Of a stretch of 64,000 bases of DNA, positions 17,494-53,138 are shown one piece after another. The position numbers and the translations under genes were made by a program. Source of the stretch: Verrucomicrobiia bacterium (GTDB lineage Bacteria; Verrucomicrobiota; Verrucomicrobiia; JADLBR01); contig DAOOOX010000002.1 of the NCBI GenBank assembly GCA_035387945.1, positions 139,282 to 203,281 of the forward strand, given 5' to 3'. The notes beneath the pieces are model-generated. The model saw only the letters and a program-made list of their open reading frames with translations. It made no database searches and was not told the origin of the DNA. How positions within the stretch are numbered: the stretch's first letter is position 1; every line of letters begins with the position of its first letter.

Positions 17494-17512
17494 ACAAGCG
17501 CCATATCGCCCT

Positions 17513-35636: not shown

Positions 35637-35884
35637 GGCCGCCGCCCAGCCGCCGCGAACGTCAATCCTCGGAGCCTGCCGCGCCCCCGCCGCCACATTC
35701 CCCGCGGAAAATTGCCTTTCTCTCTTGATGACCAAAAAATTACCAGAGGAACGAGAAGTTGCGACACGGCCAAACGGCAGGGCCCGAAACATCCCAACTC
35801 AAAACTTCATCGATCTCATCCAGATCCGCTTCTGCCAGCGGGACCGTGCCCACGGTCCGAAAACCTCTGAACGGAAGCATGGAA

Positions 35885-36620: not shown

Positions 36621-37157
36621 CTAAACCTGATCAAGCTTCTCGTAAACCACAAGCTCCCCCTCGTTCTTCAACTGGCTGGGGTGATATCGCGGGATCGTCA
36701 GCTCGGTCTGTTTGAACTGAACGGGCGCGGTCTTCTTGTCCACCAGCCCAACGGCCACCGCAACACCGTAGATGATGGCCTCCGGCCTCGGCGGACACCC
36801 GGGAATGTAGTAGTTGACGGGAACGATCTTCTCAACTGGCCCGATCACGCTGTAGGAATCGTGCCAGATCCCACCCCCGCACGCGCAGGAGCCAATCGCA
36901 AATACCAGCTTGGGCGCCGGCATCGCGTCGTAGGCCCGCCGCAGGGCCTTGGCCGTGCTCCGCATCGCCGGCCCCTGGCACAGCATGACATCCGCGTGCC
37001 GAGGCGATCCCACCAGTTTGATGCCAAAGCGCTCCACGTCGTAGTACGGCGTGAGGACGTTCAGCACCTCGATGTCGCAACCGTTGCACCCCCCGCTGTT
37101 CGCGTGATAGACCCACAGCGAGCGGCCAAACATCTTCTTGCACAGCTCTCTCAGCAT
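36621..37157 (-). CDS. Group-4 [NiFe]-hydrogenase small subunit (HycG/NuoB-like)
   Basis: NuoB-family proximal-cluster cysteines (GGCNGCDIE...GSCACGGG...GCPP). ATG 37157 verified; the track ORF extends to 37262. Confidence 0.8.
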   Translation of the reverse strand: MLRELCKKMFGRSLWVYHANSGGCNGCDIEVLNVLTPYYDVERFGIKLVGSPRHADVMLCQGPAMRSTAKALRRAYDAMPAPKLVFAIGSCACGGGIWHDSYSVIGPVEKIVPVNYYIPGCPPRPEAIIYGVAVAVGLVDKKTAPVQFKQTELTIPRYHPSQLKNEGELVVYEKLDQV

Positions 37158-37167: not shown

Positions 37168-37692
37168 TCAGTCCATCTCAATCTGGATATCGTCCACGGG
37201 CTTTTCGCCCTCGAGATAGGCCCGCGAACGAAACACCCAACGCTCGTTCTCCGGGTCGTCAAAGCGATAGCCCTTGAGCTTCAGTTGCTCCAGGGCCGAC
37301 GGTTCCTTGAAACATCGCCCGCAGCGCTGGCAAGTGCTCATGAATAACTCCAGTCGCTGCCCCACGTCCCCGATGACGTCGGTGGCATTCTCGTACTCCG
37401 TGCTCATGGTGATCGCCTTCTCAGGGCACACTTCCGCGCAGCGCCCACAATAGGTGCACCGGCGCCCCAGATACTTCAGGATCCGGATCTCCTGGCAGGG
37501 GTCGTACACCAGGATCTCCCGCGCCGGGCAGTTATTCGCGCACCCGGCACATCCGATGCACTTCGCCGCATCAAATATGGGCCGACCACGAAAATTGGGA
37601 GGCACCTCGCGCGGACGTGCCGGGTACGGCAGCGTCACGCGACCCGCCCTCAGGCAGACGATCGCCTCTTTCAGCTTGCTCACAAAAGACAT
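37168..37692 (-). CDS. 2x[4Fe-4S] ferredoxin-type hydrogenase subunit (HycF/NuoI-like)
   Basis: Two CxxCxxCxxxCP motifs (CIGCAGCANNCP, CTYCGRCAEVCP). ATG 37692 verified. Confidence 0.75.
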   Translation of the reverse strand: MSFVSKLKEAIVCLRAGRVTLPYPARPREVPPNFRGRPIFDAAKCIGCAGCANNCPAREILVYDPCQEIRILKYLGRRCTYCGRCAEVCPEKAITMSTEYENATDVIGDVGQRLELFMSTCQRCGRCFKEPSALEQLKLKGYRFDDPENERWVFRSRAYLEGEKPVDDIQIEMD

Positions 37693-37701: not shown

Positions 37702-38628
37702 TCACATGCCAAGGCTCGCAAGGACCAGCGCGACCATCGACACCCCAAGCAGGCACCCGAAATACCGGATCGCCTGATCGATCCGGTACCGCGCGTGCGT
37801 CGCCGCCACCAGCGTCACCAGCAAAACCAACCCCAGCACCTTCCCCCAGGTCAACAGCGCGCCCAGCGGAAACACCAGCGATGAGCCCCACGGCAGAAAC
37901 AGGGCCACGAACAGCGCGCTGTAGGCCACCAGTTTCACCATCCGCGCATACTTGAACATCGCCAGCTTCGGCCCCGAGTACTCCATCAGCGGCCCCTCCA
38001 TGATCTCCGTCTCAGCCTCGGAGATATCGAACGGCACCCGCGCAACGAACGCCTGGAACGACAGGGCCACGACCCCAAGCATGATCAAACCAGAAACGGG
38101 CACCCCGCCCGCCGCGTACACGGACCCGTCGAGCACGGTCTCCAGCCGGAATGACCCCGTGTGGATTGCACCGATGAGAATCGCCACGGCAAACAGGGGC
38201 TCCAGCGCGACCATCGACATCATCTCGCGGCTCATCCCAACCAGAGAGAATGTGCTGCCCGCCGCCAGGCCGCCCAGCACCGTGCAGACACCGCACAACG
38301 TCATCAGGTAGATGAGGAGGATGGCATCACCGGCGCCTTGCAGCGGCACCCCGACGCCCATCGGCACCATGCACGCCACGGCCACCGCCGCCGCAAATGA
38401 CAGCCTTGCCGCAAACTGTTGCATCCCCGGCACGTCCCCAGACTCGATGTCCTCCTTGCCAAGCAACTTCAACAGATCGAAATAGGGTTGCCAGATCGGC
38501 GGGCCTTGGCGCGACTGGATGCGGGCCGTCACCTTCCGCACCACGCCCTCCAGGAACGGCGCCACCAACAGGACGGCGCCAACGTTGAATATCCCAGCCA
38601 AGACCAACCTGCCCCAGTCCATGGTCAT
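37702..38628 (-). CDS. Hydrogenase membrane subunit (HycD/NuoH-like)
   Basis: About 8 TM helices. N-terminus is typical of HycD/EchB (ARIQSRQGPPIWQPYFDLLKLLGKE). ATG 38628 verified; it overlaps the upstream stop (ATGA). Confidence 0.75.
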   Translation of the reverse strand: MTMDWGRLVLAGIFNVGAVLLVAPFLEGVVRKVTARIQSRQGPPIWQPYFDLLKLLGKEDIESGDVPGMQQFAARLSFAAAVAVACMVPMGVGVPLQGAGDAILLIYLMTLCGVCTVLGGLAAGSTFSLVGMSREMMSMVALEPLFAVAILIGAIHTGSFRLETVLDGSVYAAGGVPVSGLIMLGVVALSFQAFVARVPFDISEAETEIMEGPLMEYSGPKLAMFKYARMVKLVAYSALFVALFLPWGSSLVFPLGALLTWGKVLGLVLLVTLVAATHARYRIDQAIRYFGCLLGVSMVALVLASLGM

Positions 38629-40301
38629 CCCCTCCCCCCCAGCGCGAGGCGCCGCAGATCCTCGCCCGACCAGATTCGCCTGTGGCCCGACCTCACGTCG
38701 ATTGTCTCCATCCGGTCCGTGCACGAAAAACAGGGGTCGATGCTGCCCAGCGCGATCGTCATGTCTGCGAGTTGCTGGTCCTTGATCATCGACGGAATAC
38801 CCTGGAGGTTCTGATAGGTCGGCGCGCGCACCCGCCAGCGCCGCGGGCGGTTGTTCTCGCCCGTCACGACGAAATGATGCGCCTCGCCCCGAGGCGCCTC
38901 CACCGACGAGAGCCCCATGCGACCCACCGGCAACTCGTCCTCGATCTGCGACTGGATCGGCCCGCCCGGCATCTTCTCAAGGCACTGGCGGATGATTCGG
39001 ATCGACTCGAAAACCTCGTTCATCCGCACGACGAGGCGCGACCAGACGTCGCCATCGCGCGCCACGATCACGTCGAAATCCACCCTGTCGTAGGCCGCGT
39101 ACGGGTGGTCGCGACGGCAGTCGATGTCCGCGCCCGATGCCCGCGCCACCGGCCCAACCAGGCCGACATCCTTGACCAGTTGTGCGCTCGCCACGCCCAC
39201 GCCACGCGTGCGCTTTTGGATGTTGCGGTCGCTGCTGACCGCATCCACCACACTCCTCCACTCCTCCTCCAGCTTGTCGAGAACCCCCCGCAGCTCGGCC
39301 GCCATCTCGGATCCGATGTCCCAGCGCACGCCCCCCACGACACAGAGCCCATACGTCTTTCGATTGCCCGTGATCTTTTCCGCCACCCACATGATCGGCT
39401 CGCGGATGCGGAAACTTTGCATGAATAGCGTGTCGAAGCCGACGATGTGGCACGCCAGCCCGACCCAGAGCAGATGGCTGTGCAATCGCTCCACCTCCAG
39501 CATGATCGTGCGAACGAATTCGGCGCGCTCGGGCACCCGCAGCGCCGCGGCGTTCTCGACCGCCTGCACGTAGGTGACGCTATGGACGCACCCGCAGATC
39601 CCGCAAATGCGCTCGGCCATCATCGGGATGTCATTGTAGGAAAGGACCGACTCGGCGAGTTTCTCGATCCCGCGATGCGCCATGAACCCGCGATACTCGC
39701 ACCCGCGCACCACCTCCCCGTCCACGTACAGCCGAAAATGCGCGGGCTCGTCCAGCGTCGGATGAAATGGCCCGAAGGGCACCACCACGCAGCCCTCGGG
39801 CGGATCGTCGAACTTGAACTCCAGTTCACCATCAAAGTTCGCTGGGACGTGATCCCACGAAACATCTTTTCGCAACGGGTGCACGCCCTCCGGCCACCCG
39901 TCCGGAAGGACCAGCCTCTTGGGATACCTGTGCCCGATGGGCTCGATGCCCACGAGATCGCGAAATTCCCGCTCCGCCCAGCTGGCCGCCGGAACGACGT
40001 CCGAAATGCTGTCCAAGGCGGGCCTCTCGGCCGGCAGATATGACAACACCCCGCACAGCAATTTCGCCCGGTCGAACGCAAAGTTGTGCGCCACGAGATA
40101 CTCGCCAGAGAACGGCCGGTCATCCGCCCCGATGCTGATCACATACCGCGCGCCCATGTCGCGAAAGATATGCCCGCACACGGCCTTGATCGCCCTGGGA
40201 TCGACCACCACGAACATGCGCCCCCCGCCGGGCAGATCCGCCCGCCGGATCGACCCGCCGAATTTCTCCTTCAGCTCACCCAGTTTTGTGCGTGCCTCCA
40301 T
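38625..40301 (-). CDS. Group-4 [NiFe]-hydrogenase large subunit with fused N-terminal NuoC-like domain (HycE-like)
   Basis: Both Ni-Fe ligand motifs are present: N-terminal RICGICGCVHS and C-terminal DPCFSCTDR. A NuoC-like domain precedes the NuoD-like domain, about 560 aa in total as in HycE. The track ORF begins on a TTG at 40313, and ATG 40301 (MEARTKLG) sits behind a GAGGG RBS. Confidence 0.85.
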   Translation of the reverse strand: MEARTKLGELKEKFGGSIRRADLPGGGRMFVVVDPRAIKAVCGHIFRDMGARYVISIGADDRPFSGEYLVAHNFAFDRAKLLCGVLSYLPAERPALDSISDVVPAASWAEREFRDLVGIEPIGHRYPKRLVLPDGWPEGVHPLRKDVSWDHVPANFDGELEFKFDDPPEGCVVVPFGPFHPTLDEPAHFRLYVDGEVVRGCEYRGFMAHRGIEKLAESVLSYNDIPMMAERICGICGCVHSVTYVQAVENAAALRVPERAEFVRTIMLEVERLHSHLLWVGLACHIVGFDTLFMQSFRIREPIMWVAEKITGNRKTYGLCVVGGVRWDIGSEMAAELRGVLDKLEEEWRSVVDAVSSDRNIQKRTRGVGVASAQLVKDVGLVGPVARASGADIDCRRDHPYAAYDRVDFDVIVARDGDVWSRLVVRMNEVFESIRIIRQCLEKMPGGPIQSQIEDELPVGRMGLSSVEAPRGEAHHFVVTGENNRPRRWRVRAPTYQNLQGIPSMIKDQQLADMTIALGSIDPCFSCTDRMETIDVRSGHRRIWSGEDLRRLALGGRG

Positions 40302-40309
40302 GCCTGCCC

Positions 40310-42271
40310 TCAATCGTCTCCGCGCCCGCCCGCCGCCAGTTCGCCACTAGGTCTCGCGCGCGATGTTGTGGCACCGTCGCGTGCAGCGCCGGACGCTGTA
40401 CCGCCCATCCACCGGAAATACCGCATCAATTCTCCATAGTACCCTTTTGCCGCATAACGGTGACAGTCTGCCTCCGCCACATAACCGCACAGCCATGGCT
40501 CGGCCTCTCGGGCCCTCGCAGCCCCCAACCTCGACACGAGGCGCGCGACCAAGAACCCCAGGCCCAAAACACACGCGAGCACCACCGGCACCAAGACCGC
40601 ACGCCCTCCAAATACCGCGACCCCAAGTGCGGCCGCGCCCTCCACGGGCCATGCCTCGGCCAGCGCTGCCCCCGACCCTCCTGGGCTGCTGCCCAGCGCG
40701 GCACCGACCAGCTTGAGCCCCAAACCCGGAAGCACGCCCAATACGATGCACGCAACGGCAAGCAGCCATTGCGGCAGACCCATCATCCAGCCCACCTCCA
40801 TCGAGCGCCGACCCGTGGCCCTCTGCTCCACCCATGCGCTGGTCCGAGAGAGGAAGCTCGCACCAAAGAACTTGACGAACGCCGCAAGCGTTAGCGCGCT
40901 GGTAAGAATGGCGATCGCCGCGCACAGGGGAACATACCTCGCCCCCGACGCGCCCTGGATGGCCCCAACGCACAGTCCCCACTTGCTCGCAAAACCATTT
41001 GACAGAGGAACGCCCGATACCGACAGGGCGCCCACGAGTGCCGTCACGCCCGTCAGCGGCATCAGCCGCATCAATCCCCCCAGCCTGTCGAGACTCTGCG
41101 TGCCCGTGGCCCAGACCATCGACCCCGAATTGAGAAACAGCAGGCTCTTGAAGAGGCCGTGATTGATGGTGTGGAAGAGCGCCCCCCCAAGACCCATCGC
41201 CCCCAACGCCACGAGCGCAGGATCCGCCGATGGCAGCAACGAGAGCGCAACGCCAAGCCCAAACAGGATGTACCCGACCTGACCAATGCTCGAAAATGCC
41301 AACAGCCGTTTCGTCTGGTCTTGTTGAAGGGCGGCCACCGTCCCCGTGAACAGCGTGATCGTGCCCAAGATCACGATGGTCAAACCCCACGCTGACATCG
41401 GGCATCCGGCACGAGAACCCTCTGGCACCAACCACAAGAAACAGCGCATCATCCCATAAACACCCGTCTTGATCATCACGCCCGACAGCAGCGCGCTGAC
41501 GGGCGAGGGCGCCGCCGGATGCGCGTCCGGCAGCCAAATCTGACCGAATGGCCACATGCCCGCCTTGATGCCAAAGGCCGCCAGGAACAGCGCGAGCGCC
41601 ACCACCACCACAAACGGCCGCGTCTGCAATAGCACCGATACGTTCCCGGCCAGCGAATCGAACTCATACCTGCCGGCGTGCCCCCCGGCACCCGCCCCAG
41701 TCGGTGCCAGCAGCGCTGCCCCGATCATCGCCAGCGCGCACGCAACCTGCATCATGAGGATGTACTTGTTCGCGGCACGGATGTTCGCAGCCTCCCGGTG
41801 CTCGAATCGAATCAGCAGATAGCTCGGCACGGTCATCATCTGCCAGAAGACCATGAACACCCACATCGTGTCCGTGACCGCCACGATCCCATACATCCCA
41901 GCCACGAACATCAGGAAATTAGGGTAATAGCGCGCAACGCCGTAGCCCGGGTAGTGGTCCATGTACCGGATCGAAAAAAGCGCGGCGATCGGCGCGATCA
42001 TCGCGATGATCGCCACGAAAATCGCGCTCAATCCGTCCACGTAAAATCTCACCGCCAGACCCGGATGCCCGAGGATCAGCCACGCCTGCCCACTCGGCTC
42101 GCCCGAGCCCAGCACCCCGGCCACCGCAACAAGGGCCAGCGCGCTCGAAATGCCCGTGACCGCAAACGCCACCCACCCGGCGGCGGCGCGACTCCGAGCC
42201 ACAGGCAGCGTCAGCGCCGCACCCGCAAGGCAGGTGAATATCGCAAACATGTGTGCCTGGCCCGAAGTCAT
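40310..42271 (-). CDS. Hydrogenase membrane subunit, NuoL/Mrp-antiporter-like (HycC/HyfB-like)
   Basis: Large polytopic protein with NuoL/MnhA-type motifs. ATG 42271 verified (MTSGQAHMFAIF); it overlaps the hycI-like stop (ATGA). The track ORF starts at 42439. Confidence 0.75.
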   Translation of the reverse strand: MTSGQAHMFAIFTCLAGAALTLPVARSRAAAGWVAFAVTGISSALALVAVAGVLGSGEPSGQAWLILGHPGLAVRFYVDGLSAIFVAIIAMIAPIAALFSIRYMDHYPGYGVARYYPNFLMFVAGMYGIVAVTDTMWVFMVFWQMMTVPSYLLIRFEHREAANIRAANKYILMMQVACALAMIGAALLAPTGAGAGGHAGRYEFDSLAGNVSVLLQTRPFVVVVALALFLAAFGIKAGMWPFGQIWLPDAHPAAPSPVSALLSGVMIKTGVYGMMRCFLWLVPEGSRAGCPMSAWGLTIVILGTITLFTGTVAALQQDQTKRLLAFSSIGQVGYILFGLGVALSLLPSADPALVALGAMGLGGALFHTINHGLFKSLLFLNSGSMVWATGTQSLDRLGGLMRLMPLTGVTALVGALSVSGVPLSNGFASKWGLCVGAIQGASGARYVPLCAAIAILTSALTLAAFVKFFGASFLSRTSAWVEQRATGRRSMEVGWMMGLPQWLLAVACIVLGVLPGLGLKLVGAALGSSPGGSGAALAEAWPVEGAAALGVAVFGGRAVLVPVVLACVLGLGFLVARLVSRLGAARAREAEPWLCGYVAEADCHRYAAKGYYGELMRYFRWMGGTASGAARDGATTSRARPSGELAAGGRGDD

Positions 42272-42792
42272 ACGCGGACCGGATCGGTTTGTGTTCGGGC
42301 CAGCGCCGCGACGAACAATTTCACCAACATGTCGACGGTCTGCTGCACGGCCGACGTCAGGGACGCTTCCCCCACAAGGGAATTCGGTTGGACGCCGAGC
42401 AGCCAGACCCGCGTCTTCCCATCGGCCTCGATCGCGCAAGCCAGCGTGCCGAGGCTCACCCTGTGCGTCGAAATCTGGGGAAAACGCTCCGCCATCTGCA
42501 TGGAGTCCAACAACACCACGGATCCCGGCGCGCCACCAAAATCAACCGCGTCCAGAAACAGCACCGTATCGTAACCGCCATCCGCCAGATGCGGGAGAAA
42601 ACGTTCCGGCGCTGGGCCGGCGGCGATGATCTCGGGCGCGTCTCCACCCCCATCGCCGATTCCCGCGGCCGCCCGCAGCGACTCCGCGAGCCTCACTCCC
42701 AGCGCGTCGTCGCCAGAATCTGTATTCCCCACACCCACCAGACAGGACCGCCCCCGGACGCACGCTTCGATCTCCTCGCGCAGGTCACTCAT
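42268..42792 (-). CDS. Hydrogenase maturation endopeptidase (HycI/HyaD family)
   Basis: Motifs LVGVGNTDSGDDALGVRLAE...VLFLDAVDFGGAPGSVVLLD...STHRVSLGTL. ATG 42792 verified (MSDLREE); it overlaps the upstream stop (ATGA). The track ORF extends to 43083. Confidence 0.75.
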   Translation of the reverse strand: MSDLREEIEACVRGRSCLVGVGNTDSGDDALGVRLAESLRAAAGIGDGGGDAPEIIAAGPAPERFLPHLADGGYDTVLFLDAVDFGGAPGSVVLLDSMQMAERFPQISTHRVSLGTLACAIEADGKTRVWLLGVQPNSLVGEASLTSAVQQTVDMLVKLFVAALARTQTDPVRV

Positions 42793-43640
42793 CAGATGTC
42801 CTCCCCGAGCTTCTTGATCTGGCGATATGTGAACACCGGGCCGTCCACGCACACGTAGGCCACCCCAATGCAGCAATGCCCGCACTTTCCGACGCCGCAT
42901 TTCATGTAGCGTTCTAGCGTCGAGACGATGTTCTCCTCCGCGATCCCCATCCCAGACAGATCTCGGATGACAAAACGGAACATCACGGGCGGCCCGCACA
43001 CAAAAGCGACCGTGTTCTCCACCGGCACCCTCACGCCCTCTTTCTTGAAGAGGCTGCCCACTACGCCCACGTTCCCGGTCCACCCATCTTCGCCGCGATC
43101 AACGGTCAGGTGACACTCCACGCCGGCCGCCTCCTCCCACTCGCGCAGGTTGTCCCGGTACATCAGATCCTTGGGCGTCCGCGCCCCCAGGAATATCTGG
43201 ATGCGCCCGTAGCTCTCCCGGTGCGCCAGTGCATACATGATGCACGAGCGGAGCGGGATGAGCCCGATGCCACCCGCCACAAAAACCAGATTCTTCCCGG
43301 AGAAGGCCTCCATCGGAAAGCCGTTGCCGTATGGCCCGCGCACTCCGAACTTCTCGCCCGGCCTTAGGTCATGCAGCGCCGCAGTGCAACTGCCCACCCG
43401 CCGCACCGTGAAAAACGTCTTCCCCTCGGTCGGGCTCGGGGGCAACGACAACGGCATCTCTCCGGCCCCAAAGAGCGACACCTGCACAAACTGGCCGGGC
43501 CTGAAACGCATGAAGGTTTCCTGCTCCCGCGCGTCCTCGAAATGCCAGTGGAATGTCTTCACGTCCTGGATCTCGTCCACGACGCGATCCAGCACGGCGA
43601 TCTTCGGAAGGTAGACGTTGTCAGTCACCGGCGGATCCAT
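42792..43640 (-). CDS. FAD/NAD(P)H-binding [2Fe-2S] oxidoreductase subunit (AsrB/HydG/PyrK-like)
   Basis: FNR-type flavin/NAD fold (RFRPGQFVQVSL...LVFVAGGIGLIPL). C-terminal 2Fe-2S cysteine cluster CGVGKCGHCCIGVAYVC. ATG 43640 verified. Confidence 0.65.
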   Translation of the reverse strand: MDPPVTDNVYLPKIAVLDRVVDEIQDVKTFHWHFEDAREQETFMRFRPGQFVQVSLFGAGEMPLSLPPSPTEGKTFFTVRRVGSCTAALHDLRPGEKFGVRGPYGNGFPMEAFSGKNLVFVAGGIGLIPLRSCIMYALAHRESYGRIQIFLGARTPKDLMYRDNLREWEEAAGVECHLTVDRGEDGWTGNVGVVGSLFKKEGVRVPVENTVAFVCGPPVMFRFVIRDLSGMGIAEENIVSTLERYMKCGVGKCGHCCIGVAYVCVDGPVFTYRQIKKLGEDI

Positions 43641-44754
43641 GCTGTCCTTTCGGTTCCGCCGCCCCCGGCCTCTCGGGCGCGATCTTGTCGTCCTGTGCCG
43701 TCGCGCGGCGAATCATCTCCACGACGCTCGGCATGCCGATGTCACCATGGCAAACCTCCGTGCAGCGACCACAGCCTACGCATGCCATCGACAGCTCGCG
43801 CTGGATGAAATAGTGGGCCAGTTTTCTGAAGAAACGACGGTTTCGGCGATCATGCACCGCCCTGCGCGGGTTGTGTCCCCCGGCCATCCGCGTGAACCCC
43901 CCCAGCGCACACGCATCCCACAGGCGCACCCGCTCCCACTCGCCAGCGCCCACCTCACGGTCCCTGACCGTGAAACAGGTGCAGGCGGGACAGACGTACG
44001 TGCACCCGCCGCATTCCAGGCAGCGGACGCCAATCTCCTCCCACGTCTTATCGAGAATCTTCCCCTGCGAGACATATCGCACGGTCGCCGAAAACCAGCT
44101 TGTCGTGGCCTCCTTGAATTGCTTGCGCACCTCGCCGAGAATCCTGCGGCGCCGGGCGATTTGCTCCGCCGCCCCCCGCTTGAAAATCGGATCCGCGAAC
44201 AGCGCCGCACCCGCGGGCGTGCCGGCCACCGCCATGAACTCGCCCCCCCCAAGATCCATCAGCTGCAGATCAAAGTGGTCGCGCGCCGCCGGACCGGTGT
44301 CGGCGCACACGCAGAAGCAGGACTCATCGATGTCCGAGGTCGGGTCGGTGCACACGACGTTGACCAAAAACAGGCCCCTGCGGTGCCGCTCGTAGTAGAC
44401 GTCGCGGAAATCCCGGCCCAAGAAAAACCTGTCGAGATGCCAGATGCCCGCCACGTCGCACGAGCGGATGCCAAAGATCGCCCGCCGAGTCCCATCATAC
44501 GTCGGCTCGACCCGCGGGTCCCCGCCCCCTCCCCGAATCTTCATGATCCGCTCGATCTGGGGAAACACGTACCGCTTCGGGGGATGATAGGGATTTGCGA
44601 TGTGGATCTGGATCTGGTCGCGGTTCTCGTCCGTCACGATGTCAAAGACACTATCCCGCCCCCGTCCCCGGAACGGCGCGAGAACTTCGTGGTCTTTCCG
44701 CAGAAGATCCACGATCTTCAGAACGTCGTCGCGATGAATGATGCGGGCGCGCAT
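43621..44754 (-). CDS. Fe-S subunit (AsrA/HydB-like, two 4Fe-4S clusters)
   Basis: Ferredoxin-like cysteine clusters (CLECGGCTYVCPACTCF; CVGCGRCTEVCHGD). ATG 44754 verified (MRARIIHRDDV), 2 nt after the fdhF-like stop. The track ORF starts at 44916. Confidence 0.6.
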   Translation of the reverse strand: MRARIIHRDDVLKIVDLLRKDHEVLAPFRGRGRDSVFDIVTDENRDQIQIHIANPYHPPKRYVFPQIERIMKIRGGGGDPRVEPTYDGTRRAIFGIRSCDVAGIWHLDRFFLGRDFRDVYYERHRRGLFLVNVVCTDPTSDIDESCFCVCADTGPAARDHFDLQLMDLGGGEFMAVAGTPAGAALFADPIFKRGAAEQIARRRRILGEVRKQFKEATTSWFSATVRYVSQGKILDKTWEEIGVRCLECGGCTYVCPACTCFTVRDREVGAGEWERVRLWDACALGGFTRMAGGHNPRRAVHDRRNRRFFRKLAHYFIQRELSMACVGCGRCTEVCHGDIGMPSVVEMIRRATAQDDKIAPERPGAAEPKGQHGSAGD

Positions 44755-44756: not shown

Positions 44757-46793
44757 TCAGTCCTTGGTGATGCTCACAAACACCGGCTTCCCCTGGTGCC
44801 CTGCCTCGAGCGGGGTCTCCCCCATGATCGCCTTCTCCACCTCCCGCACGAAGAATGGCACAAAGACCGTTCCGTTCCTCACCTCGCCGCTCACCCGCGC
44901 CGTGGTCAGGGCGCAACCCCGCGCCGCGCAGAGCCTGATCCGGTCGCCGTCGCGGATGCCGGCGCGGGCCGCGTCGTCGGTGTTCATCTCGACAAAACCG
45001 TCCGGATAATCCAGCAGCAGGATGCGCAGCTCACGCTTGAGGGTTTCGCTGTGTTTCACCAGCACGTTCTGGTGCCAGTAATAGAGCGAGTGCCCAAAGA
45101 TGAGCGCAAAGGGGTACTCCTGGGGCGGATTGACCTGCGTCGTCGGCCTGGGCACCGGCACGAACTTGAACGGTTTGCCTGAGATGCCGTCCTCGAAAAG
45201 AAACCGGGTGCCCAGGGGCCTGTCTTTCGTGCACGGCCACTGGCGGCCGTATTCACACGAGAGGTTCTCGTAATTCGCGCCGCCGTAGTTGGGCACCGCC
45301 TGCCCGATCTCCGCCATGACATCGGCAGATGTCGCATAACTCCAGCCGGCGCCCAGCGCGCGCGCGACGTCCTCGATCTGCCGCCACGCCGGCCGCAGCC
45401 CCGGCGGTGGATCAAGCACCTGTCCCGCAATTTGAATTCGCCGATCCGTGCTGGTGAACGTGACCTGCTCTTCGCCAAAAGCCACCACCGGAAGGATCAC
45501 GTGGGCGTATCGGGCCGTCGACGTCATGAACAGGTGCTGCAAAACCACCAGATCCAATTCCCGGAGCGTCGCCGCGGCATCGGTGAATGCGGCCGTCGTC
45601 ACCGGATCGTAGCGCGTCAGCCAGACGGCGCGCACCGATCCCCCACCCCGGTCCGTCAAAACCTCCCGCGCCCCCAGCCCCTGCGCTGTGGGCAGGGCGC
45701 CCGCGCCCCACAGCGACTCGAGCCGCCCCCGTGCCACGGGCTCATCCACCGCAAAATAGCCGGGCAGCCGATCGGGCAACATGCCCATGTCGCAGGCGCC
45801 CTGCAGATTGTTGTGCTCGGTCAGCGCGAAAAGCCCCGAGTTCACCTTGCCGATATTGCCGGTCAGCAGCGCCAGGTTCACCATCGCGCGGATGCTGTTC
45901 ATCCCCCGCGCCTCAATGCCAGTCGAGTACAGGAACGCGGCCGAACCAGCCCGCGCCAACGTCAGCGCCGCACCCTCGATGTGTTCCGGCGGCACGCCGC
46001 AGGTGTCGGCGGCCTGGAGCAAGTCATAGTCCTGCACCGCCGCCACCAACCCCTCGTAGTCCCGGCAGTGCCCGCGGACGAAGGCCAGGTCCAGCAGGCC
46101 GTGATCGACGATCACCTTGGCCATCGCCCCGTAAAGCGTGACCCGCGTTCCGGGACGAACCTGGAGCATGAAATCCGCCTGCTCCGCCACCCGGTGCCGG
46201 CGCGCGTCCACGACAATCAACTTCGCGCCACCCAGCTTGGCGCGGATCACGCGGCCAGCGATCGTCGGCATCTGCAACGCCAGATCCACGCCGTCCACGA
46301 GAATGACCTCGCTCCGCGACAACTCGCCGATGGAGTTGGTCGTGGCCGGCACGCCCAGCATGTCCAGCAGGACATTGACGCTGTTGTTGCAGTAAACGCC
46401 CGTCCCGTGATCCACGTTGTTGGTGCCAATGACCGCGCGAGCCAGTTTCTGCAGGAGGTAGCTCTCCTCATTCGAGCAGCGGGGCGAGCTGAAAAACGCC
46501 AGCGCATCCGGCCCGTGGCGCCGCCGTATTTCCTCGAGCCTCCGCACGATGAAGTCGATGGCCTCGTCCCAGCCGACCTCCTGAAAACGCCCGTCCTTCC
46601 TGAGCAAAGGCACCTTCAGTCGCTCGGGGGAACTCGCCACCTCATGCACGTTCCACCCGCGGATGCAGATCCTGCCCTGGTTCGTGGGGTGTGACATGCT
46701 GGGGCAGACGCCCACAATCCGGTTGTCAGCGGTCTCCAGATACAGACCGCAACCCACGCCGCAGAATGTGCAGGTTGTCAGGCTATGCGCCAT
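44757..46793 (-). CDS. Molybdopterin (Mo/W-bisPGD) oxidoreductase catalytic subunit, FdhF-like, with an atypical active site
   Basis: N-terminal [4Fe-4S] motif CTFCGVGCGLYL...C and conserved NNLQGACDMG. Strong collinearity with formate dehydrogenase H. The ORF is continuous, with no in-frame TGA, so there is no selenocysteine. At the U/C-His position it reads GVYCNNS, and at the Arg position LTEH. Confidence 0.8.
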   Translation of the reverse strand: MAHSLTTCTFCGVGCGLYLETADNRIVGVCPSMSHPTNQGRICIRGWNVHEVASSPERLKVPLLRKDGRFQEVGWDEAIDFIVRRLEEIRRRHGPDALAFFSSPRCSNEESYLLQKLARAVIGTNNVDHGTGVYCNNSVNVLLDMLGVPATTNSIGELSRSEVILVDGVDLALQMPTIAGRVIRAKLGGAKLIVVDARRHRVAEQADFMLQVRPGTRVTLYGAMAKVIVDHGLLDLAFVRGHCRDYEGLVAAVQDYDLLQAADTCGVPPEHIEGAALTLARAGSAAFLYSTGIEARGMNSIRAMVNLALLTGNIGKVNSGLFALTEHNNLQGACDMGMLPDRLPGYFAVDEPVARGRLESLWGAGALPTAQGLGAREVLTDRGGGSVRAVWLTRYDPVTTAAFTDAAATLRELDLVVLQHLFMTSTARYAHVILPVVAFGEEQVTFTSTDRRIQIAGQVLDPPPGLRPAWRQIEDVARALGAGWSYATSADVMAEIGQAVPNYGGANYENLSCEYGRQWPCTKDRPLGTRFLFEDGISGKPFKFVPVPRPTTQVNPPQEYPFALIFGHSLYYWHQNVLVKHSETLKRELRILLLDYPDGFVEMNTDDAARAGIRDGDRIRLCAARGCALTTARVSGEVRNGTVFVPFFVREVEKAIMGETPLEAGHQGKPVFVSITKD

Positions 46794-47000
46794 CCCCGAT
46801 GCCCCCGACAGAACCCGGCGGCGCGCCGGCCACCGCCCGCGCGGCGCAAGATCCGATCACTCCTGCAACCATGAGCCAGATTTACAGATCTCGCATCGCT
46901 AGGCAAGACACGCTTATTGGCCCCGATCTTTGCATTCGGCCGTTCTGCCAAGCGCAACCGCGCCGCTTTTGCCAGCAAACGGTATTCTCGAGTCAGACCC

Positions 47001-47031
47001 CATCCGGCGGATGGACCCCATCCGGCGGATG
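47001..47031. promoter_or_regulatory. Two tandem 13-bp perfect palindromes CATCCGGCGGATG (centres 18 bp apart) in the fdhF-like / parB divergent region
   Basis: Exact copies at 47001-47013 and 47019-47031. They lie about 210-240 bp upstream of the fdhF-like start and about 185 bp upstream of the parB ATG. This is a candidate dimeric-regulator operator, inferred only from sequence symmetry. Confidence 0.3.
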
Positions 47032-47047
47032 CCGGACCACCGGGGCA

Positions 47048-47100
47048 GAAAATGGGACGTAGCAGCGCGCTTGCGGGCGATTCGAATCGCCCGCAAGCAG
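47048..47100 (-). repeat. Palindromic extragenic repeat, family R1, copy c (reverse orientation), in the parB / fdhF-like divergent intergenic region
   Basis: The reverse complement matches copies a and b (CAGTAGGAACCTGCTTGCGGGCGATTCGAATCGCCCGCAAGCGCGCTGCTACG). The flanking CATTTTCTGCCCCGGTGG tail is also shared with a segment at 34711-34733. Confidence 0.7.
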
Positions 47101-47179
47101 GTTCCTACTGCCCGGTTTCCGAATTCTCGAGTCAGCAAACGAGAATCCGCGCCCCCCTTTCGGCCCCGAACGCCCACCG

Positions 47180-47208
47180 TTGACGCCGCCCCGGCGCGTT
47201 TCTATCGT
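47180..47208 (+). promoter_or_regulatory. Candidate sigma-70-like promoter for parB (TTGACG-N17-TATCGT); the parB transcript may be leaderless or short-leader
   Basis: TTGACG at 47180-47185, a 17-nt spacer and TATCGT at 47203-47208, only 6 nt before the ATG at 47215. This is a pattern match only. Confidence 0.2.
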
Positions 47209-47214
47209 CCCCCC

Positions 47215-48105
47215 ATGTCTGCGAAACCTCTCGGGCGGGGATTGGATGCGTTACTGGGCTCTCGCGCAACGACCCCATCGACGACCACCGCCCCAGCACC
47301 CGGCGAGACCGTGCGCCGCATCCCCCACGAACAGATCGTCCCCTGCCCCCTCCAGCCCCGCAAGGAGTTCGCCGAGGATTCGCTCCAGGAACTCGCCGAC
47401 AGCATCCGCTCCCGCGGCATCATGCAGCCGCTCCTAGTGCGCGAGCGCGAGGGACGCTTCGAGCTGATCGCCGGCGAGCGCCGCTGGCGCGCGGCGAAAC
47501 TCGCTGGACTTGCCGAGGTGCCGGTCCTCGTGCGATCCGTCTCTGATGTCGAGGCGCTCGAATTCGCGCTCATCGAGAACCTCCAGCGGGCCGACCTCAA
47601 TCCCATCGAGGAGGCCGAGGGCTACGCAAACCTGCAGAATCGCTTCAAGCTCACGCAGGAGGAGATCAGCCGCGTCGTGGGCAAACCGCGCGCCACCGTG
47701 GCCAACGCACTCCGCCTCCTCGACCTCGACCCCACCGTCAAGGCGTTCGTCTCCAAGGGCCAGCTCAGCGCCGGTCACGCGAAAGCCCTCCTGTCCATCA
47801 AAGATGCCGCCCTCCAGCGCGCGCTCGCCGAGCGCACGATCCGCCAGGGCCTGTCTGTCCGCCAGGTCGAAGATGTGGCCGCCGGCGTGGCCCGGGGCGA
47901 TGCCAGAACCGGCCGCCAGAAGAAAGCTGCCCAAAGACCCACCGATGCCGACATAAAGGAACTCCAGAGTCGCCTGCGCCGCCGCTTCGCGACCCAGGTC
48001 AACCTGAAGTATTCGGGCGGCAAGGGGCGCATCGAGGTCGAATTCTACAGCCTCGATGACCTGAACCGCCTCGCCGCGCTCATGGGAATCGACGAGGAAT
48101 CCTGA
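47215..48105 (+). CDS. parB: Chromosome partitioning protein ParB (Spo0J)
   Basis: ParB box (GRGLDALL), HTH and the ParB/Srx N-domain motif (QPLLVRERE...ELIAGERRWRAAKLAGL). ATG 47215 verified; the track ORF starts upstream at 46930. Confidence 0.85.
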   Translation: MSAKPLGRGLDALLGSRATTPSTTTAPAPGETVRRIPHEQIVPCPLQPRKEFAEDSLQELADSIRSRGIMQPLLVREREGRFELIAGERRWRAAKLAGLAEVPVLVRSVSDVEALEFALIENLQRADLNPIEEAEGYANLQNRFKLTQEEISRVVGKPRATVANALRLLDLDPTVKAFVSKGQLSAGHAKALLSIKDAALQRALAERTIRQGLSVRQVEDVAAGVARGDARTGRQKKAAQRPTDADIKELQSRLRRRFATQVNLKYSGGKGRIEVEFYSLDDLNRLAALMGIDEES

Positions 48106-50661: not shown

Positions 50662-51321
50662 TCAGAATCCCAGCACCGAGAACCACCCCGTCACGCTCGC
50701 GTCGCGCCCCGCATCCAGCCGAACTTCTCCACCCCCGCCCCTGAACGATTCCAGATGCATCACCATATCGCGCCCATCCCGTAGATTCTCTGCGCCAGCC
50801 TCCACACAGCGGCGGGCCTCCCCGCCAAACGCCAGCCCCACATCCAAGCGACCCGATGCCAGCAGTCCCACCGCAACGCGCACGCCCTCGGCAGGCAGGT
50901 CCGTCAAGTCTGGATTCGATATCGCCCGGATTTGTATTCGGCGACGGGCACGACCCGGTGCCACGCGGTCCGCCTCACCGGTCTGCCCATCCCACGGTGA
51001 GCCCGTGAAACACAGAAACCGATCCACGGACGCCACGATGTCGGACAAGACACCCAGGCCACAATAGATCGCCGCATCATCGGGCTCTATCCCTCGTCGC
51101 CGGGCCCCAAAGGCACAGCAGAAAAGCCGCAGCCCGCGATCGCGCAATCGCTGGAACGCCGGCTCGTGCACGTGGTGCACCCCATCGTGCAGGAGATACA
51201 GGTACGCCTCGGCCCCGCTGCCCATGGCGCCGGCGCACGCCGACACGGCTCCCCTCGACGCCACGCCCGTCTCACCCGACCCGAGCAGCACCCCTAGGCT
51301 CCCGCGCCTCTCCGCACTCAT
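50662..51321 (-). CDS. DsrE/DsrF-like (YchN-fold) family protein, possibly tandem-domain
   Basis: The N-terminal domain resembles DsrE/TusD (LGVLLGSGE...AYLYLLHDGVHHV...LFCCAFGAR), and the second half looks like a related repeat. ATG 51321 verified, overlapping the Trm112 stop. The assignment is tentative. Confidence 0.3.
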   Translation of the reverse strand: MSAERRGSLGVLLGSGETGVASRGAVSACAGAMGSGAEAYLYLLHDGVHHVHEPAFQRLRDRGLRLFCCAFGARRRGIEPDDAAIYCGLGVLSDIVASVDRFLCFTGSPWDGQTGEADRVAPGRARRRIQIRAISNPDLTDLPAEGVRVAVGLLASGRLDVGLAFGGEARRCVEAGAENLRDGRDMVMHLESFRGGGGEVRLDAGRDASVTGWFSVLGF

Positions 51322-51572
51322 GCCGGTGGCAACGCCAGCGCCTCTTCCGCAAGCATGAATGGGATCCCCTTTCGCACCGGATAGCAAAATGCGCCGTCCC
51401 CGCGCACCAGGGCCGCGTCAATTGGTTCCCGCACCACATTTCCGGCGCGATTCCGGACGCGGCCCGTCGCGATCGCCGCGTTCAGCAGCGCCACTGTCGC
51501 GGCATCCGCCAGGCGCACGCGCTGTCTCGTCTCAGGACAAACCAGTACCGCCAGCAGTTTCGCGTCAACCAT
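51318..51572 (-). CDS. Trm112-family small zinc-ribbon-like protein (UPF0434/YcaR-like)
   Basis: Motifs LLAVLVCPETRQRV...FCYPVRKGIPFMLAEEA are typical of Trm112. ATG 51572 verified. Confidence 0.6.
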   Translation of the reverse strand: MVDAKLLAVLVCPETRQRVRLADAATVALLNAAIATGRVRNRAGNVVREPIDAALVRGDGAFCYPVRKGIPFMLAEEALALPPA

Positions 51573-52503
51573 CGATGTGACCTCCCTCAATCCGAGATTC
51601 CCTCGTGCGACTCCAGCGCCTCCACCTTTTCTTTATCGCCCCCACAAAATCCTCCGGGGCCTCCTTGAATATCCGGGCCCCCAGCTTCTCGGCCCGCCCC
51701 ACGAGATATCTCCGGTGGCGAATCATTGCGCTCCTCACAAGCATACATGAATCAGTGTCCATGTCGCATTCCGGGGCCAACGCCATGAACGCGTCTTCCA
51801 ACATCGCAAGATCGTGCGCCTTGCCGAGGCATGTCTCCAGCCGACTGAGCCGCTTGCGCAGTTTTGACAGGTGCCCCGGCCACGCCTTCTCCACCAACTG
51901 CACCTGAAACATCAGATACTTGGAGAATTTCCGCCACTCGTGGGCGTCTTCGATCAGGCCCGACTCGCCCCATTGCCTCATCAGCCGCCGCGCCTTCCGG
52001 TAGGTCCCCCGCAACCCGCCCTCGAGAACCTGCCAGCCCGATGCCTCCAGCGCCTGCCCCTCGAGCGACCCCACCATGGACCGCAATGTCTCCTCGGCAT
52101 GATGCGTCGCCCTTTTTGCGGCGCCACTGTCTCCATCCGCCGGCAACGCCCTCTCCAGAAACGCCCGCAACCCCTGGAGCGCCTCCCGCAACTCCGGCTT
52201 CCGCGCGTCCTCTCGCATTTCATCGGTAATCTGAAAAATCACGGCACGGTCCCGGAAATCTGCCAGCCCCCGGGCGGAATCGCGGAGTTCCACGGTCTTC
52301 CGATGATAGTAAGCGTCCTCCAGACTCGCCCGAACCATCCGCAAGTAGGCGCGCAGCCTCTTGATCGCCGTGCGCAGCCCATGCACGTGTTCGGGACCTA
52401 CCGCAACATCCGCCCCCCCGATCACATCACCGATCAGGCCCCCAACGACTCGATGTACCCCAACACCAGGCCGTTCCGACCGTTTCAGCGACGGCTTCAC
52501 CAA
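51565..52503 (-). CDS. CHAD-domain protein
   Basis: All-helical protein with a CHAD signature (VHGLRTAIKRLRAYLRMV...). Confidence 0.55.
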   Translation of the reverse strand: MVKPSLKRSERPGVGVHRVVGGLIGDVIGGADVAVGPEHVHGLRTAIKRLRAYLRMVRASLEDAYYHRKTVELRDSARGLADFRDRAVIFQITDEMREDARKPELREALQGLRAFLERALPADGDSGAAKRATHHAEETLRSMVGSLEGQALEASGWQVLEGGLRGTYRKARRLMRQWGESGLIEDAHEWRKFSKYLMFQVQLVEKAWPGHLSKLRKRLSRLETCLGKAHDLAMLEDAFMALAPECDMDTDSCMLVRSAMIRHRRYLVGRAEKLGARIFKEAPEDFVGAIKKRWRRWSRTRESRIEGGHIDG

Positions 52504-52552
52504 CGCAAATATACCCCCAACTCCGCTAACCTGAATCCAAATCGAATCGGGG

Positions 52553-52582
52553 CGGCGGACCCGTCTGTTTGTCGGGCCGCCG
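52553..52582 (-). terminator. GC-rich hairpin between the ridA-like stop and the CHAD gene start (weak terminator candidate, no U-tract)
   Basis: CGGCGGACCCG-TCTGTTTGT-CGGGCCGCCG. The downstream sequence on the transcribed strand is not T-rich, so this may be only an attenuator or processing hairpin. Confidence 0.2.
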
Positions 52583-52623
52583 AGGATTCCCCCTCGACCT
52601 GGAGCCGCGCGGCCTGACCTCGA

Positions 52624-53007
52624 TCAGCGCCTCCAGGCAACCACCTCGATCTCAACCCGAGCGCCCAAAGGCAACGCCGCCACCCCGACCGTGCTCCGCG
52701 CCGGCCTCCACCCTCCAAAAAACTCCGAGTAGATCGCGTTCATCGTCGCAAAATCACCCAGGTCTTTCAGAAACACCGTCGTCTTCACCACATCGCCAAA
52801 TCCCAGCCCCTCGTCCCCCAGCACGGCGGCCACGTTGTCCAGCACCCGCCGCGTCTGCGCCGCTATATCCCCGTCCACCAGTTTTCCGGTCGACGGATCA
52901 ATCGGTATCTGTCCCGACAGAAAGACGAAATCGCCCGTGACGATCCCCTGCGAATAAGGCCCGACCGCCTTTGGCGCTCCAGCCGATTCAATGGCGCGTG
53001 GTTGCAT
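52624..53007 (-). CDS. ridA: RidA family (YjgF/TdcF) reactive-intermediate deaminase
   Basis: Motifs PKAVGPYSQGIVTGDFVFLSGQIP...VKTTVFL...GVAALPLGARVEIE. Confidence 0.8.
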   Translation of the reverse strand: MQPRAIESAGAPKAVGPYSQGIVTGDFVFLSGQIPIDPSTGKLVDGDIAAQTRRVLDNVAAVLGDEGLGFGDVVKTTVFLKDLGDFATMNAIYSEFFGGWRPARSTVGVAALPLGARVEIEVVAWRR

Positions 53008-53138
53008 GTCCGCTTGTATGGGGCCTCCGCTCCCCCAGTCAATAGCCCGTCACCTGCGCCTCACGAAGGCGCCGCCGCACGCACGGTCTCCACCCGCCCA
53101 TTCGGCCCAGCTTGAGAAAACGAAATCCTTGGGGTTTC

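Follow-up and report, generated by a model that had tools for sequence, protein, structure and literature searches.

Introduction

What is the role of a formate dehydrogenase-like protein in which the catalytic residues of formate dehydrogenase (FDH) have been replaced? The question is raised by an open reading frame (ORF) at 44757–46793 on the minus strand of a 64,000-nt stretch of DNA from a Verrucomicrobiia bacterium (contig DAOOOX010000002.1, positions 139,282–203,281; hereafter the window, to whose numbering all coordinates refer). The ORF encodes an FdhF-like protein of 678 amino acids and is the first of eight co-directional, tightly packed genes. An initial annotation had remarked on the apparent absence of the catalytic residues and had proposed a molybdenum or tungsten enzyme that acts on a different substrate, perhaps through a shifted cysteine, within a complex resembling formate hydrogenlyase. 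Here, we present the evidence that leads us to another reading, to which we assign a probability of about 0.6: the protein would be a non-catalytic, probably cofactor-less FdhF relic with a NuoG-like role in an uncharacterised, NAD(P)H-linked and possibly ion-translocating [NiFe]-hydrogenase. On this reading the protein is not a formate dehydrogenase, and the complex is more likely a NAD(P)H-linked membrane hydrogenase than the formate hydrogenlyase as which it is commonly annotated.

Results

The catalytic residues of formate dehydrogenase are replaced

The ORF is intact over 678 codons from an ATG start and contains no in-frame TGA, so that recoding by selenocysteine (Sec) could be rejected. 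Three Pfam domains, Molybdop_Fe4S4 (PF04879), Molybdopterin (PF00384) and Molydop_binding (PF01568), give its product the architecture of the dimethyl sulfoxide reductase superfamily, with an Fe4S4 domain, molybdopterin domains and a dinucleotide-binding cap; there is no twin-arginine translocation signal and the protein is cytoplasmic. The best NCBIfam model, TIGR01591 (Fdh-alpha), scored 563.7 bits, under its curated equivalog cut-off of 666.25, and the NuoG model TIGR01973 scored 125.1 bits against a cut-off of 470. When all PDB chains were searched with phmmer, the top matches were cytoplasmic formate dehydrogenases, headed by FdhF of the hydrogen-dependent CO2 reductase (HDCR; 7qv7_S, E 1e-131) and followed by F420-FDH 9t1s_L, 7bkb_D and YjgC/ForCE; E. 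coli FDH-H (1aa6) was matched with an E value of 2e-108. An AlphaFold 2 (AF2) model compared by Foldseek had the FDH fold, with template modelling (TM) scores of 0.81–0.84 to the FDH and Nap structures 1fdi, 8rqz and 7vw6. The ORF and the [4Fe-4S] motif described in the initial annotation were both recovered, in a protein with the FdhF fold. Modelling had also been suggested there as a way to see which residue reaches the metal; the predicted local distance difference test (pLDDT) score averaged 74 and fell below 50 at residues 1–51, 132–135, 326–334 and 568–594, so that the fold was confirmed and the metal-reaching residue could not be read from the active-site loops.

The E. coli K-12 FdhF sequence, taken from NC_000913.3, was aligned globally to the FdhF-like protein (34% identity). 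The FDH-H sequence on which the initial annotation had relied turned out to be correct, and the substitutions that it had deduced stand. Position U140 of FDH-H, the Sec/Cys ligand of the metal, aligns with Y134, and the essential H141, for which a cysteine or an asparagine had been suggested, aligns with C135; R333, G334 and Q335 correspond to T325, E326 and H327, which places a threonine at the catalytic arginine. On the minus strand, the codons of Y134 (TAC, 46392–46394) and C135 (TGC) occupy 46389–46394 and those of T325-E326-H327 occupy 45813–45821. In the phmmer alignments to 7qv7_S, 9t1s_L and 7bkb_D no gaps occur at either site: 'NNVDHCARLCHAPTV' of the FdhF-like protein lies over 'NNVDHGTGVYCNNSV' of the solved FDHs at the ligand site, and 'PLRGQNNVQGACD' over 'ALTEHNNLQGACD' at the arginine site. 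A MAFFT alignment of 152 sequences returned the same columns. A gapped realignment cannot restore the motifs, because the vicinity of position 134 offers no Cys-His pair and the 22 residues preceding T325 include no arginine, the nearest being R302; with all alignment methods gap-free at both sites, such a rescue was rejected.

All four cysteines of the N-terminal [4Fe-4S] motif (C8-x2-C11-x3-C15...C43; 46665–46772, minus strand) are kept, and R45 then replaces Lys44, the FDH lysine situated between the cluster and the proximal pterin. This lysine is present in 99% of 71 canonical FDH representatives, defined by Cys-His and Arg at the catalytic columns; His141 and Arg333 are by selection found in 100% of them, and also in 7qv7_S, 9t1s_L, 7bkb_D and E. 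coli FdhF. A K44R variant of E. coli FDH-H keeps ~95% of its cluster and only ~7% of its activity (PMC12176258), and the arginine of the FdhF-like protein, invariant among its orthologs, would fit a retained [4Fe-4S] cluster. Because Sec/Cys140, His141, Arg333 and Lys44 are all replaced and the TIGR01591 cut-off is missed, it appears very unlikely that the protein is a formate dehydrogenase, in agreement with what the initial annotation had suspected.

The substitutions are a trait of a discrete family

A scan of one genome per GTDB species found a relative of the FdhF-like protein in 206 genomes. Locus and phylum counts given here refer to the best 80 of these 206 species loci, and residue counts to 75 aligned sequences. 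The best 80 belong to Verrucomicrobiota, Acidobacteriota (Terriglobia), NC10/Methylomirabilota, Nitrospirota, Planctomycetota, Desulfobacterota and Omnitrophota. A large protein collection contained at least 120 clusters with 66–99% identity to the protein, mostly from metagenome-assembled genomes (MAGs) of Verrucomicrobia; all of them carry G-[VA]-Y and L-T-E-[HQ]-N-N, with C, S, T, A or G after the tyrosine. Because this pattern is common to 120 database orthologs and 74 orthologs from species genomes, a sequencing artefact is excluded, and the substitutions are a family trait and not a one-off. Among 50%-identity representatives, the closest two are 58% and 53% identical to the FdhF-like protein and identity then drops to 38%, which delimits a discrete family. 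A neighbour-joining tree, crude, open to long-branch attraction and to be taken as a pointer to relatives only, groups the family among stand-alone FdhF-like proteins that are likewise non-canonical.

Across 75 species from seven phyla, 119 positions are invariant. Y134, R45, R394, H420, E442, Y571, Y572 and W573 are the same in 75/75 orthologs and E326 in 74/75; as for the cluster cysteines, C8, C11 and C15 are invariant and C43 is found in 74/75. Position 325 is occupied by T (59), S (8) or A (8), position 327 by H (38) or Q (37), and the position matching E. coli D202 by D (52) or G (23). Position 135 (C in 40, S in 19, G in 5, R in 4 and T in 3 of the 75) is too variable to be a conserved metal ligand, and the idea that a shifted Cys135 binds the metal for a new substrate was rejected for this reason.

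The Y134 codon, TAC, is one transition away from a Cys codon. Tyrosine at the Sec/Cys column also occurs in P0129, P0139, P0167, P0169, P0170, P0226 and P0264, which are otherwise unrelated non-canonical FdhF/NuoG-like lineages, and some lineages with this tyrosine keep the histidine that follows ('LYH'). Replacement by Tyr (TAY), one transition from Cys (TGY), may simply be the way in which decay most often begins.

About half of the polar cofactor columns are lost

A literature search for a list of FDH-H residues in contact with molybdopterin guanine dinucleotide (MGD) gave only the study on K44 (PMC12176258). As a proxy for these residues we used the columns conserved in canonical FDHs and identical in E. 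coli NapA. Since NapA is an active bis-pyranopterin guanine dinucleotide (bisPGD) enzyme with a different substrate from FDH, the shared columns are general and not formate-specific. In the 71 canonical representatives 125 columns are ≥80% conserved, and the FdhF-like protein keeps 88 of them. The general columns, that is, those beyond the iron-sulfur (FeS) domain and identical in NapA, number 68, of which 33 are polar. Canonical proteins keep on average 62 of the 68, E. coli FdhF 60, the FdhF-like protein 47 and E. coli NuoG, which is without Mo cofactor in complex I, 34. For the 33 polar columns the corresponding figures are 27 (E. coli FdhF), 17 (FdhF-like protein) and 14 (NuoG).

The losses within the 68 shared columns include N176D, H181L/M, D429H (the histidine being invariant), K451E, N457S, D478A, R581H, N662K/R and D670, and bulky residues replace glycine in G334E and G453V. 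A further change of this last kind, G402R, affects a column conserved in canonical FDHs only, NapA having Cys there. By column comparison, the replaced bis-MGD positions R394 (Gly402), H420 (Asp429), E442 (Lys451), V444 (Gly453) and A469 (Asp478) map to 45387–45614 (minus strand). In this enzyme family, acidic and basic residues like those lost would be expected to bind the phosphates, guanine bases and guanosine riboses of MGD. The pattern points to the loss of bis-MGD and to a cavity that would be filled by conserved aromatic and charged side chains. The designation of the protein as a Mo/W-bisPGD enzyme may be kept for its superfamily fold and domains, and probably not for the cofactor, with 16 of the 33 polar general columns lost. 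A dead relic resembling NuoG agrees better with these observations than a re-tooled enzyme working on a different substrate, given the loss of about half of these columns and the Gly or Ala found at the Tyr134 column in the deeper relatives described below.

The gene heads an operon with a [NiFe]-hydrogenase and a sulfhydrogenase-type module

All eight genes lie on the minus strand. The ATG of the second gene is located 2 nt past the stop codon of the FdhF-like gene. This second gene (43621–44754) encodes a HydB/AsrA-like iron-sulfur subunit of 377 amino acids (Pfam Fer4_22), a full-length homolog of the beta subunit of P. furiosus sulfhydrogenase I (9nez_B, E 1e-34) in which the FeS cysteine motifs are kept; the NCBIfam ShyB/HydB/AsrA models scored far under their cut-offs. 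It is followed by a gene (42792–43640) for a HydG/AsrB-like FAD/NAD(P)H-binding subunit of 282 amino acids with a C-terminal [2Fe-2S] motif (Pfam NAD_binding_1 and DHODB_Fe-S_bind), a full-length homolog of the sulfhydrogenase I gamma subunit (9nez_C, E 3e-58) with the NAD-binding and [2Fe-2S] motifs kept.

The remaining genes correspond to hydrogenase and membrane subunits. A HycC/NuoL-like antiporter-type membrane subunit (40310–42439; Pfam Proton_antipo_M/N), whose start is uncertain and whose orthologs have ~654 amino acids, finds its best NCBIfam match, under cut-off, in hydrogenase 4 subunit B. The HycE-like large subunit of the [NiFe]-hydrogenase (38625–40313), a fusion of NuoC and NuoD, has E. 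coli HycE as its best PDB match (7z0s_E, E 4e-130) and both NiFe cysteine motifs intact (RICGICGCVH and DPCFSCTDR). Next come a HycD/NuoH-like membrane subunit (37702–38724; Pfam NADHdh; start uncertain, orthologs ~308 amino acids) and a HycF/NuoI-like 2x[4Fe-4S] subunit detected by Pfam (37168–37692), with formate hydrogenlyase subunit 6 as best PDB match (7z0s_F, E 1e-20) and an NCBIfam match, under cut-off, to the formate hydrogenlyase iron-sulfur subunit. The last gene (36621–37157) encodes a HycG/NuoB-like hydrogenase small subunit recognised by Pfam and NCBIfam, 178 amino acids long from an internal ATG and carrying [4Fe-4S] cysteine motifs.

Every subunit of the operon scores under the NCBIfam equivalog cut-offs; the HydB-like and HydG-like genes are for this reason taken as relatives, and not orthologs, of sulfhydrogenase/AsrA/AsrB subunits. 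No HycB homolog was found in the operon, whose sole small FeS protein matches HycF, and a Pfam scan of the operon gave no NuoE/F. Seen from formate hydrogenlyase, the operon thus has a HycE-type large subunit with the NiFe cysteines together with HycG, HycF, HycD and HycC, and is without HycB and a competent FdhF. Seen from the sulfhydrogenase beta/gamma or AsrA/AsrB module, the two genes after the FdhF-like gene agree in homology, cysteine motifs and the FAD/NAD(P)-binding domain. That the complex is related to formate hydrogenlyase and yet something else, as had been proposed, is supported by the absence of HycB and the presence of a sulfhydrogenase beta/gamma-type NAD(P)H module instead.

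The operon is conserved and its deep relatives resemble a series of decay

The eight genes have the same order and orientation in all of the 80 species loci where the contig is long enough. Downstream of the FdhF-like gene, a HydB-like gene was found in 78 of the 80, HydG-like in 74, NuoL-like in 69, HycE-like in 68, HycD-like and HycF-like in 65 each and HycG-like in 59. Contig ends explain these shortfalls, with the exception of L054, whose stored flank extends past the HycE-like gene without a HycD/F/G match. Typical identity to the window is ~65% for the FdhF-like protein, ~73% for HydB-like, ~77% for HydG-like, ~75% for HycE-like, ~85% for HycG-like and ~54% for NuoL-like. From these levels across the 80 loci, the FdhF-like relic is under clear purifying selection, yet ranks with the subunits that evolve faster.

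The size of the membrane arm varies within the family because the number of NuoL-like genes differs among loci. The window has one such gene and L003 (14593–18454) has two NuoL-like antiporter-type genes; at L016, L020, L024, L025, L034, L039, L069 and L076, among others, ~4 kb separate the NuoL-like match from the HycE-like gene, which suggests a second NuoL-like gene there too. At L001 (10001–13272; ENA ERZ21831265, a 500-kb contig), which encodes P0008 (724 amino acids, 72% identity), the operon is reduced to its FdhF-like and HydB-like genes; the genes that come next (DHH, RbfA, IF-2 and NusA) lie on the opposite strand and are unrelated, and the remaining operon is elsewhere or lost.

More distant relatives differ in how much of the active site they retain. 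P0134, encoded at L092 (Logan SRR22388196; genes at 1251–2054, 2818–4860 and 4857–5879), is a canonical FdhF with Cys-His and Arg. A Fer4_22 HydB/AsrA-like gene comes after it and HydG-like (NAD_binding_1+DHODB_FeS) and MobA-like NTP_transf_3 genes come before it, on a contig too short to show whether hydrogenase genes follow. Judging from its residues, this locus shows that the FdhF+HydB+HydG module exists in a catalytically intact form. In P0125 (L090, 1628–3670) the ligand column holds Ala, and HydB-like and HydG-like genes come next, in this order; P0128 (L089, 247–2274) has Gly at this column and is followed by a HydB-like gene, inside which the contig ends. Both are without Cys-His and Arg and, unlike the present family and the P0136 group, have near-canonical polar columns (25/33); they may bind the cofactor without a protein ligand and possibly represent an intermediate stage. 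P0136 (34% identity) has Gly in the ligand column ('NNLSLSSDAGQEESA') and lacks the Arg, and its locus (L088, 9895–19981; JGI 3300025856) holds the full eight-gene operon plus HycI, the NiFe motifs of the HycE-like protein being intact. P0136, P0137 and P0215 make up a second, very divergent dead FdhF-like family, with Gly at the ligand column and 'TGI' at the arginine site.

Put in order, these loci look like a decay series, in which an FdhF that was active and connected to an NAD(P)H module would have lost its catalytic residues and later its cofactor site. The tyrosine is not conserved over this series, since deep relatives with the same partners have Gly or Ala in its column, which argues for Tyr134 as a packing and not a catalytic residue.

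Surroundings of the operon

The operon is divergent from a ParB gene (46930–48105, plus strand), after which comes MutL. The 136-bp intergenic region (46794–46929) had no convincing minus-strand sigma-70 consensus, and a promoter and terminator scan of the operon gave nothing above shuffled expectation. Directly downstream of the HycG-like gene, an ORF of 244 amino acids (35799–36533, minus strand) is Gly/Arg-rich and has no Pfam or NCBIfam match; it matches only the two closest loci and no family, and probably does not represent a gene. Beyond it, at 34836–35792, lies a gene for an exosortase (EpsH).

No genes for molybdenum cofactor biosynthesis, a formate channel, pyruvate formate-lyase or hyp proteins were found among the window ORFs scanned, a scan that left out 6465–20395 and ~50700–53100; the scanned remainder of the window contains housekeeping genes (ParB, MutL, MetG, sigma-70, SMC and others). 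Four consecutive very large ORFs of 960–1351 amino acids occupy 6465–20395 (plus strand). At 20402–24472 (minus strand) and 29116–33507 (plus strand) are a 1356-amino-acid protein with CotH and lamin-tail domains and a 1463-amino-acid protein with a weak match to a GH2 TIM-barrel, and a sulfatase gene is located at 4349–5821. Together these look like polysaccharide-degrading or cell-surface gene content.

Discussion

A non-catalytic subunit in a putative NAD(P)H-linked hydrogenase

How might a complex with such a subunit work? Our reading starts from what the sequences show: the substitutions are conserved in the family, general cofactor columns have been lost, the operon is conserved as well, and the motifs for NiFe, FeS and NAD binding are intact. 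We propose that the FdhF relic keeps its fold and N-terminal [4Fe-4S] cluster but is left without metal ligand, catalytic His and Arg or FDH lysine and probably without Mo/W-bis-MGD too, and that purifying selection retains it as the first subunit of a fixed complex of eight, with HydB-like, HydG-like, HycC-like, HycD-like, HycE-like, HycF-like and HycG-like partners. The HydG-like flavoprotein would oxidise NAD(P)H at its FAD and pass the electrons through its own [2Fe-2S] cluster to those of the HydB-like subunit. The clusters of the HycF-like and HycG-like subunits would then carry them to the NiFe site in the HycE-like protein, where protons would be reduced to H2, or the whole path would run in reverse. 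The complex-I-type membrane arm formed by the HycC-like and HycD-like subunits may couple this electron flow to ion translocation. The relic, whose gene is translationally coupled to the HydB-like gene and lies beside it in canonical forms too, most likely docks on the HydB-like subunit. It would be a scaffold with one cluster, possibly off-path or used for partner docking, and with no substrate site, comparable to the FDH-derived domain of NuoG in complex I. Non-catalytic NuoG/Fdh-like domains are found in complex I and in Bfu enzymes (PMC12018979).

Several points weigh against this proposal. The absence of the cofactor is inferred from sequence columns, and the use of NAD(P)H, the direction of the reaction and the coupling to ions are likewise only inferred, from homology. 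The AF2 model has low confidence precisely at the active-site loops and the FeS domain and, because pLDDT is below 50 in those loops, yields no pocket geometry. Y134, E326, R394, H420, E442, Y571, Y572 and W573 are invariant or nearly so, and such conserved replacements would fit a new ligand-binding site equally as well as a packed, filled-in cavity. P0125 and P0128, with 25 of the 33 polar general columns, indicate that binding of bis-MGD may persist in part of the wider clade. All of the best 80 of the 206 genomes are MAGs. Finally, the transfer of electrons from NAD(P)H to H2 is endergonic at standard conditions, and would become favourable only when H2 is scarce or the membrane potential drives it. 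Our calculation puts the reaction uphill at 1 bar H2 (−320 vs −414 mV) and favourable under ~1e-3 bar. H2 below ~1e-3 bar is typical of soils. Because the reaction becomes favourable in this range, energy-conserving disposal of reductant under hypoxia is conceivable, as is H2-driven reduction of NAD(P)+.

A more ambitious form of the proposal would make the complex an energy-converting NAD(P)H:proton oxidoreductase, similar to complex I, with protons in place of quinone as the terminal acceptor, or working in reverse from H2, and with an FdhF that degenerated independently into a NuoG-like scaffold. We regard this form as tentative and put it short of an even chance.

Alternative explanations

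If the relic does not catalyse, is its cluster used? The [4Fe-4S] cluster, near the surface, could be a second entry or exit for electrons at which ferredoxin or another soluble partner docks, in a confurcation-like reaction or one that links H2 to two acceptors. The conservation or invariance of the four cluster cysteines and R45 in 75 orthologs would be easier to explain if the cluster were used, multi-site Bfu enzymes contain NuoG/Fdh-like domains (PMC12018979), and the coupling and adjacency of the FdhF-like and HydB-like genes even in canonical forms suggests contact from cluster to cluster. Yet the operon has neither a ferredoxin gene nor a bifurcating flavin module of the NuoE/F type, and conservation need not mean use, as NuoG shows, whose off-path cluster N7 has been kept in many species. 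We consider this explanation unlikely, while it survives better than the others.

An active Mo/W-bisPGD enzyme, with the tyrosine oxygen as ligand or with no protein ligand, as in arsenite oxidase, and exchanging electrons from an undefined substrate with the hydrogenase and NAD(P)H, seems to us improbable. Such an enzyme would account for the strong conservation of the remodelled pocket, in which Tyr134 and many other residues are invariant, for the motifs NNVDH and NNLQG.CDMG that are kept around the old active site, for the three Pfam domains still detected, and for the other non-canonical lineages that have Tyr at the ligand column and keep their cofactor columns. It is difficult to reconcile with the loss of polar general columns to near the level of NuoG (16 of 33), with the replacement of the D429, D478, K451 and R581 positions and the D/G variation at that of D202, or with the bulky residues of G334E, G402R and G453V at glycine positions of canonical FDHs. 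Cys135, moreover, varies among orthologs, and the column of Tyr134 is Gly or Ala in deeper relatives with the same operon partners. We know of no Mo/W-bisPGD enzyme ligated by tyrosinate.

A decaying pseudogene-like remnant, or errors of assembly or sequencing, would agree with the position of the FdhF-like protein among the more divergent subunits (~65% vs ~75% for HycE-like and ~85% for HycG-like; 34% vs 51% in a deep relative), but is ruled out by the conservation data, namely an intact frame of 678 codons with 119 invariant positions over 75 species of seven phyla, identical residues in over 190 independent sequences, and a constant gene position and orientation with coupling to the next gene.

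Significance

Genome studies of soil, peat and groundwater bacteria read fdhF beside hyc/hyf as formate hydrogenlyase. The acidobacterial MAG SbA1, in which fdhF and hyf were read in this way (10.1101/197269), is an example of the practice, and we do not claim it as a member of the family. For the present family, found in 206 species genomes from soil, peat and groundwater, such an annotation is probably wrong; with NAD(P)H instead of formate as the predicted substrate, the carbon and hydrogen fluxes inferred from these genomes change.

The relic would also show, for a second time and independently, how an FDH subunit became a non-catalytic component of a machine of the complex-I type. Apparent intermediates are extant: a canonical FdhF with HydB/HydG-like neighbours, proteins in which the catalytic residues are lost and the cofactor columns kept, and proteins that have lost both. 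Because such stages exist, the proposed origin of the peripheral arm of complex I from hydrogenlyase-like ancestors can be tested by comparison. The donors of the group-4 [NiFe]-hydrogenases characterised so far are, to our knowledge, ferredoxin, formate or CO; a NAD(P)H-linked member, if real, would be a new physiological type. Were the energy-converting form of our proposal true, the complex would parallel, in living organisms, the step that has been proposed to lead from formate hydrogenlyase to complex I. It would also be a hitherto overlooked means by which Verrucomicrobiota, Acidobacteriota and NC10 in soils, peat and groundwater produce or consume H2, misannotated at present as formate hydrogenlyase.

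Comparison with known systems

The cytoplasmic formate dehydrogenases (E. coli FdhF, HDCR FdhF 7qv7, F420-FDH alpha 9t1s and ForCE/YjgC 8rqz) resemble the FdhF-like protein in length class, four-domain fold and N-terminal [4Fe-4S] motif, and are collinear with it over the full length at 30–38% identity. The FdhF-like protein differs from them by Tyr for Sec/Cys140, Cys/Ser/Gly for His141, Thr for Arg333 and Arg for Lys44, by the loss of 21 of the 68 columns shared by FDH and NapA, and by its TIGR01591 score under the cut-off. With E. coli formate hydrogenlyase (Hyc, group 4a; 7z0s/7z0t) the operon shares the HycC, HycD, HycE, HycF and HycG homologs and an FdhF-type gene in the cluster, but it has no HycB, its FdhF homolog is without catalytic residues, and it has two extra genes homologous to sulfhydrogenase beta/gamma. 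These two HydB-like and HydG-like genes are homologs of the beta/gamma subunits of P. furiosus sulfhydrogenase I (group 3b) and of AsrA/AsrB of anaerobic sulfite reductase; unlike in those systems, the module is joined here to a membrane-bound group-4 hydrogenase and an FdhF relic, and not to a soluble group-3b hydrogenase or a siroheme subunit.

Similar gene sets have been mentioned before. An 'enigmatic' group-4 hydrogenase locus of Saganbacteria RX5A is described with cooF, asrA, asrB and a molybdopterin oxidoreductase not identifiable as formate dehydrogenase (PMC6349859), and a 'Mbh-Mrp-oxidoreductase type' of Elusimicrobia is described with the function of its oxidoreductase left unexplained (10.1101/765248). 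The passages of the two reports that deal with these loci give no residue-level analysis of the Mo-oxidoreductase, and the loci differ from the present Hyc-type operon in having cooF and Mrp-type subunits. Our literature search, itself incomplete, found no residue-level description, biochemical work or named hydrogenase subgroup for the present operon, and no characterised NAD(P)H-linked group-4 hydrogenase beyond mentions of 'enigmatic' loci or an 'unknown oxidoreductase'. What appears to be new here is the combination, predicted from sequence, of a degenerate FDH-like scaffold with a widespread Hyc-type group-4 hydrogenase and a sulfhydrogenase-type NAD(P)H module.

A further parallel is with NuoG and complex I. 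Like NuoG, the FdhF-like protein has a Mo/W-bisPGD-derived fold without metal ligand and a similar number of polar cofactor columns (17 vs 14 of 33), and, as we read it, would be a non-catalytic part of a complex of NuoB/C/D/H/I/L homologs with a NAD(P)H-oxidising flavoprotein. In contrast to NuoG, it is a stand-alone protein that has the FDH [4Fe-4S] motif from residue 8 and lacks the 2Fe-2S/[FeFe]-hydrogenase-like extension at the N terminus. Nor is it an ortholog, being nearer to FdhF than to NuoG by its scores with TIGR01591 and TIGR01973. The complexes also differ at both ends, since the present operon has a sulfhydrogenase beta/gamma-type NAD(P)H module and not NuoE/F, and its catalytic end is a NiFe site and not a quinone site. 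By analogy, therefore, the FdhF-like protein may work like NuoG without being a member of the NuoG family.

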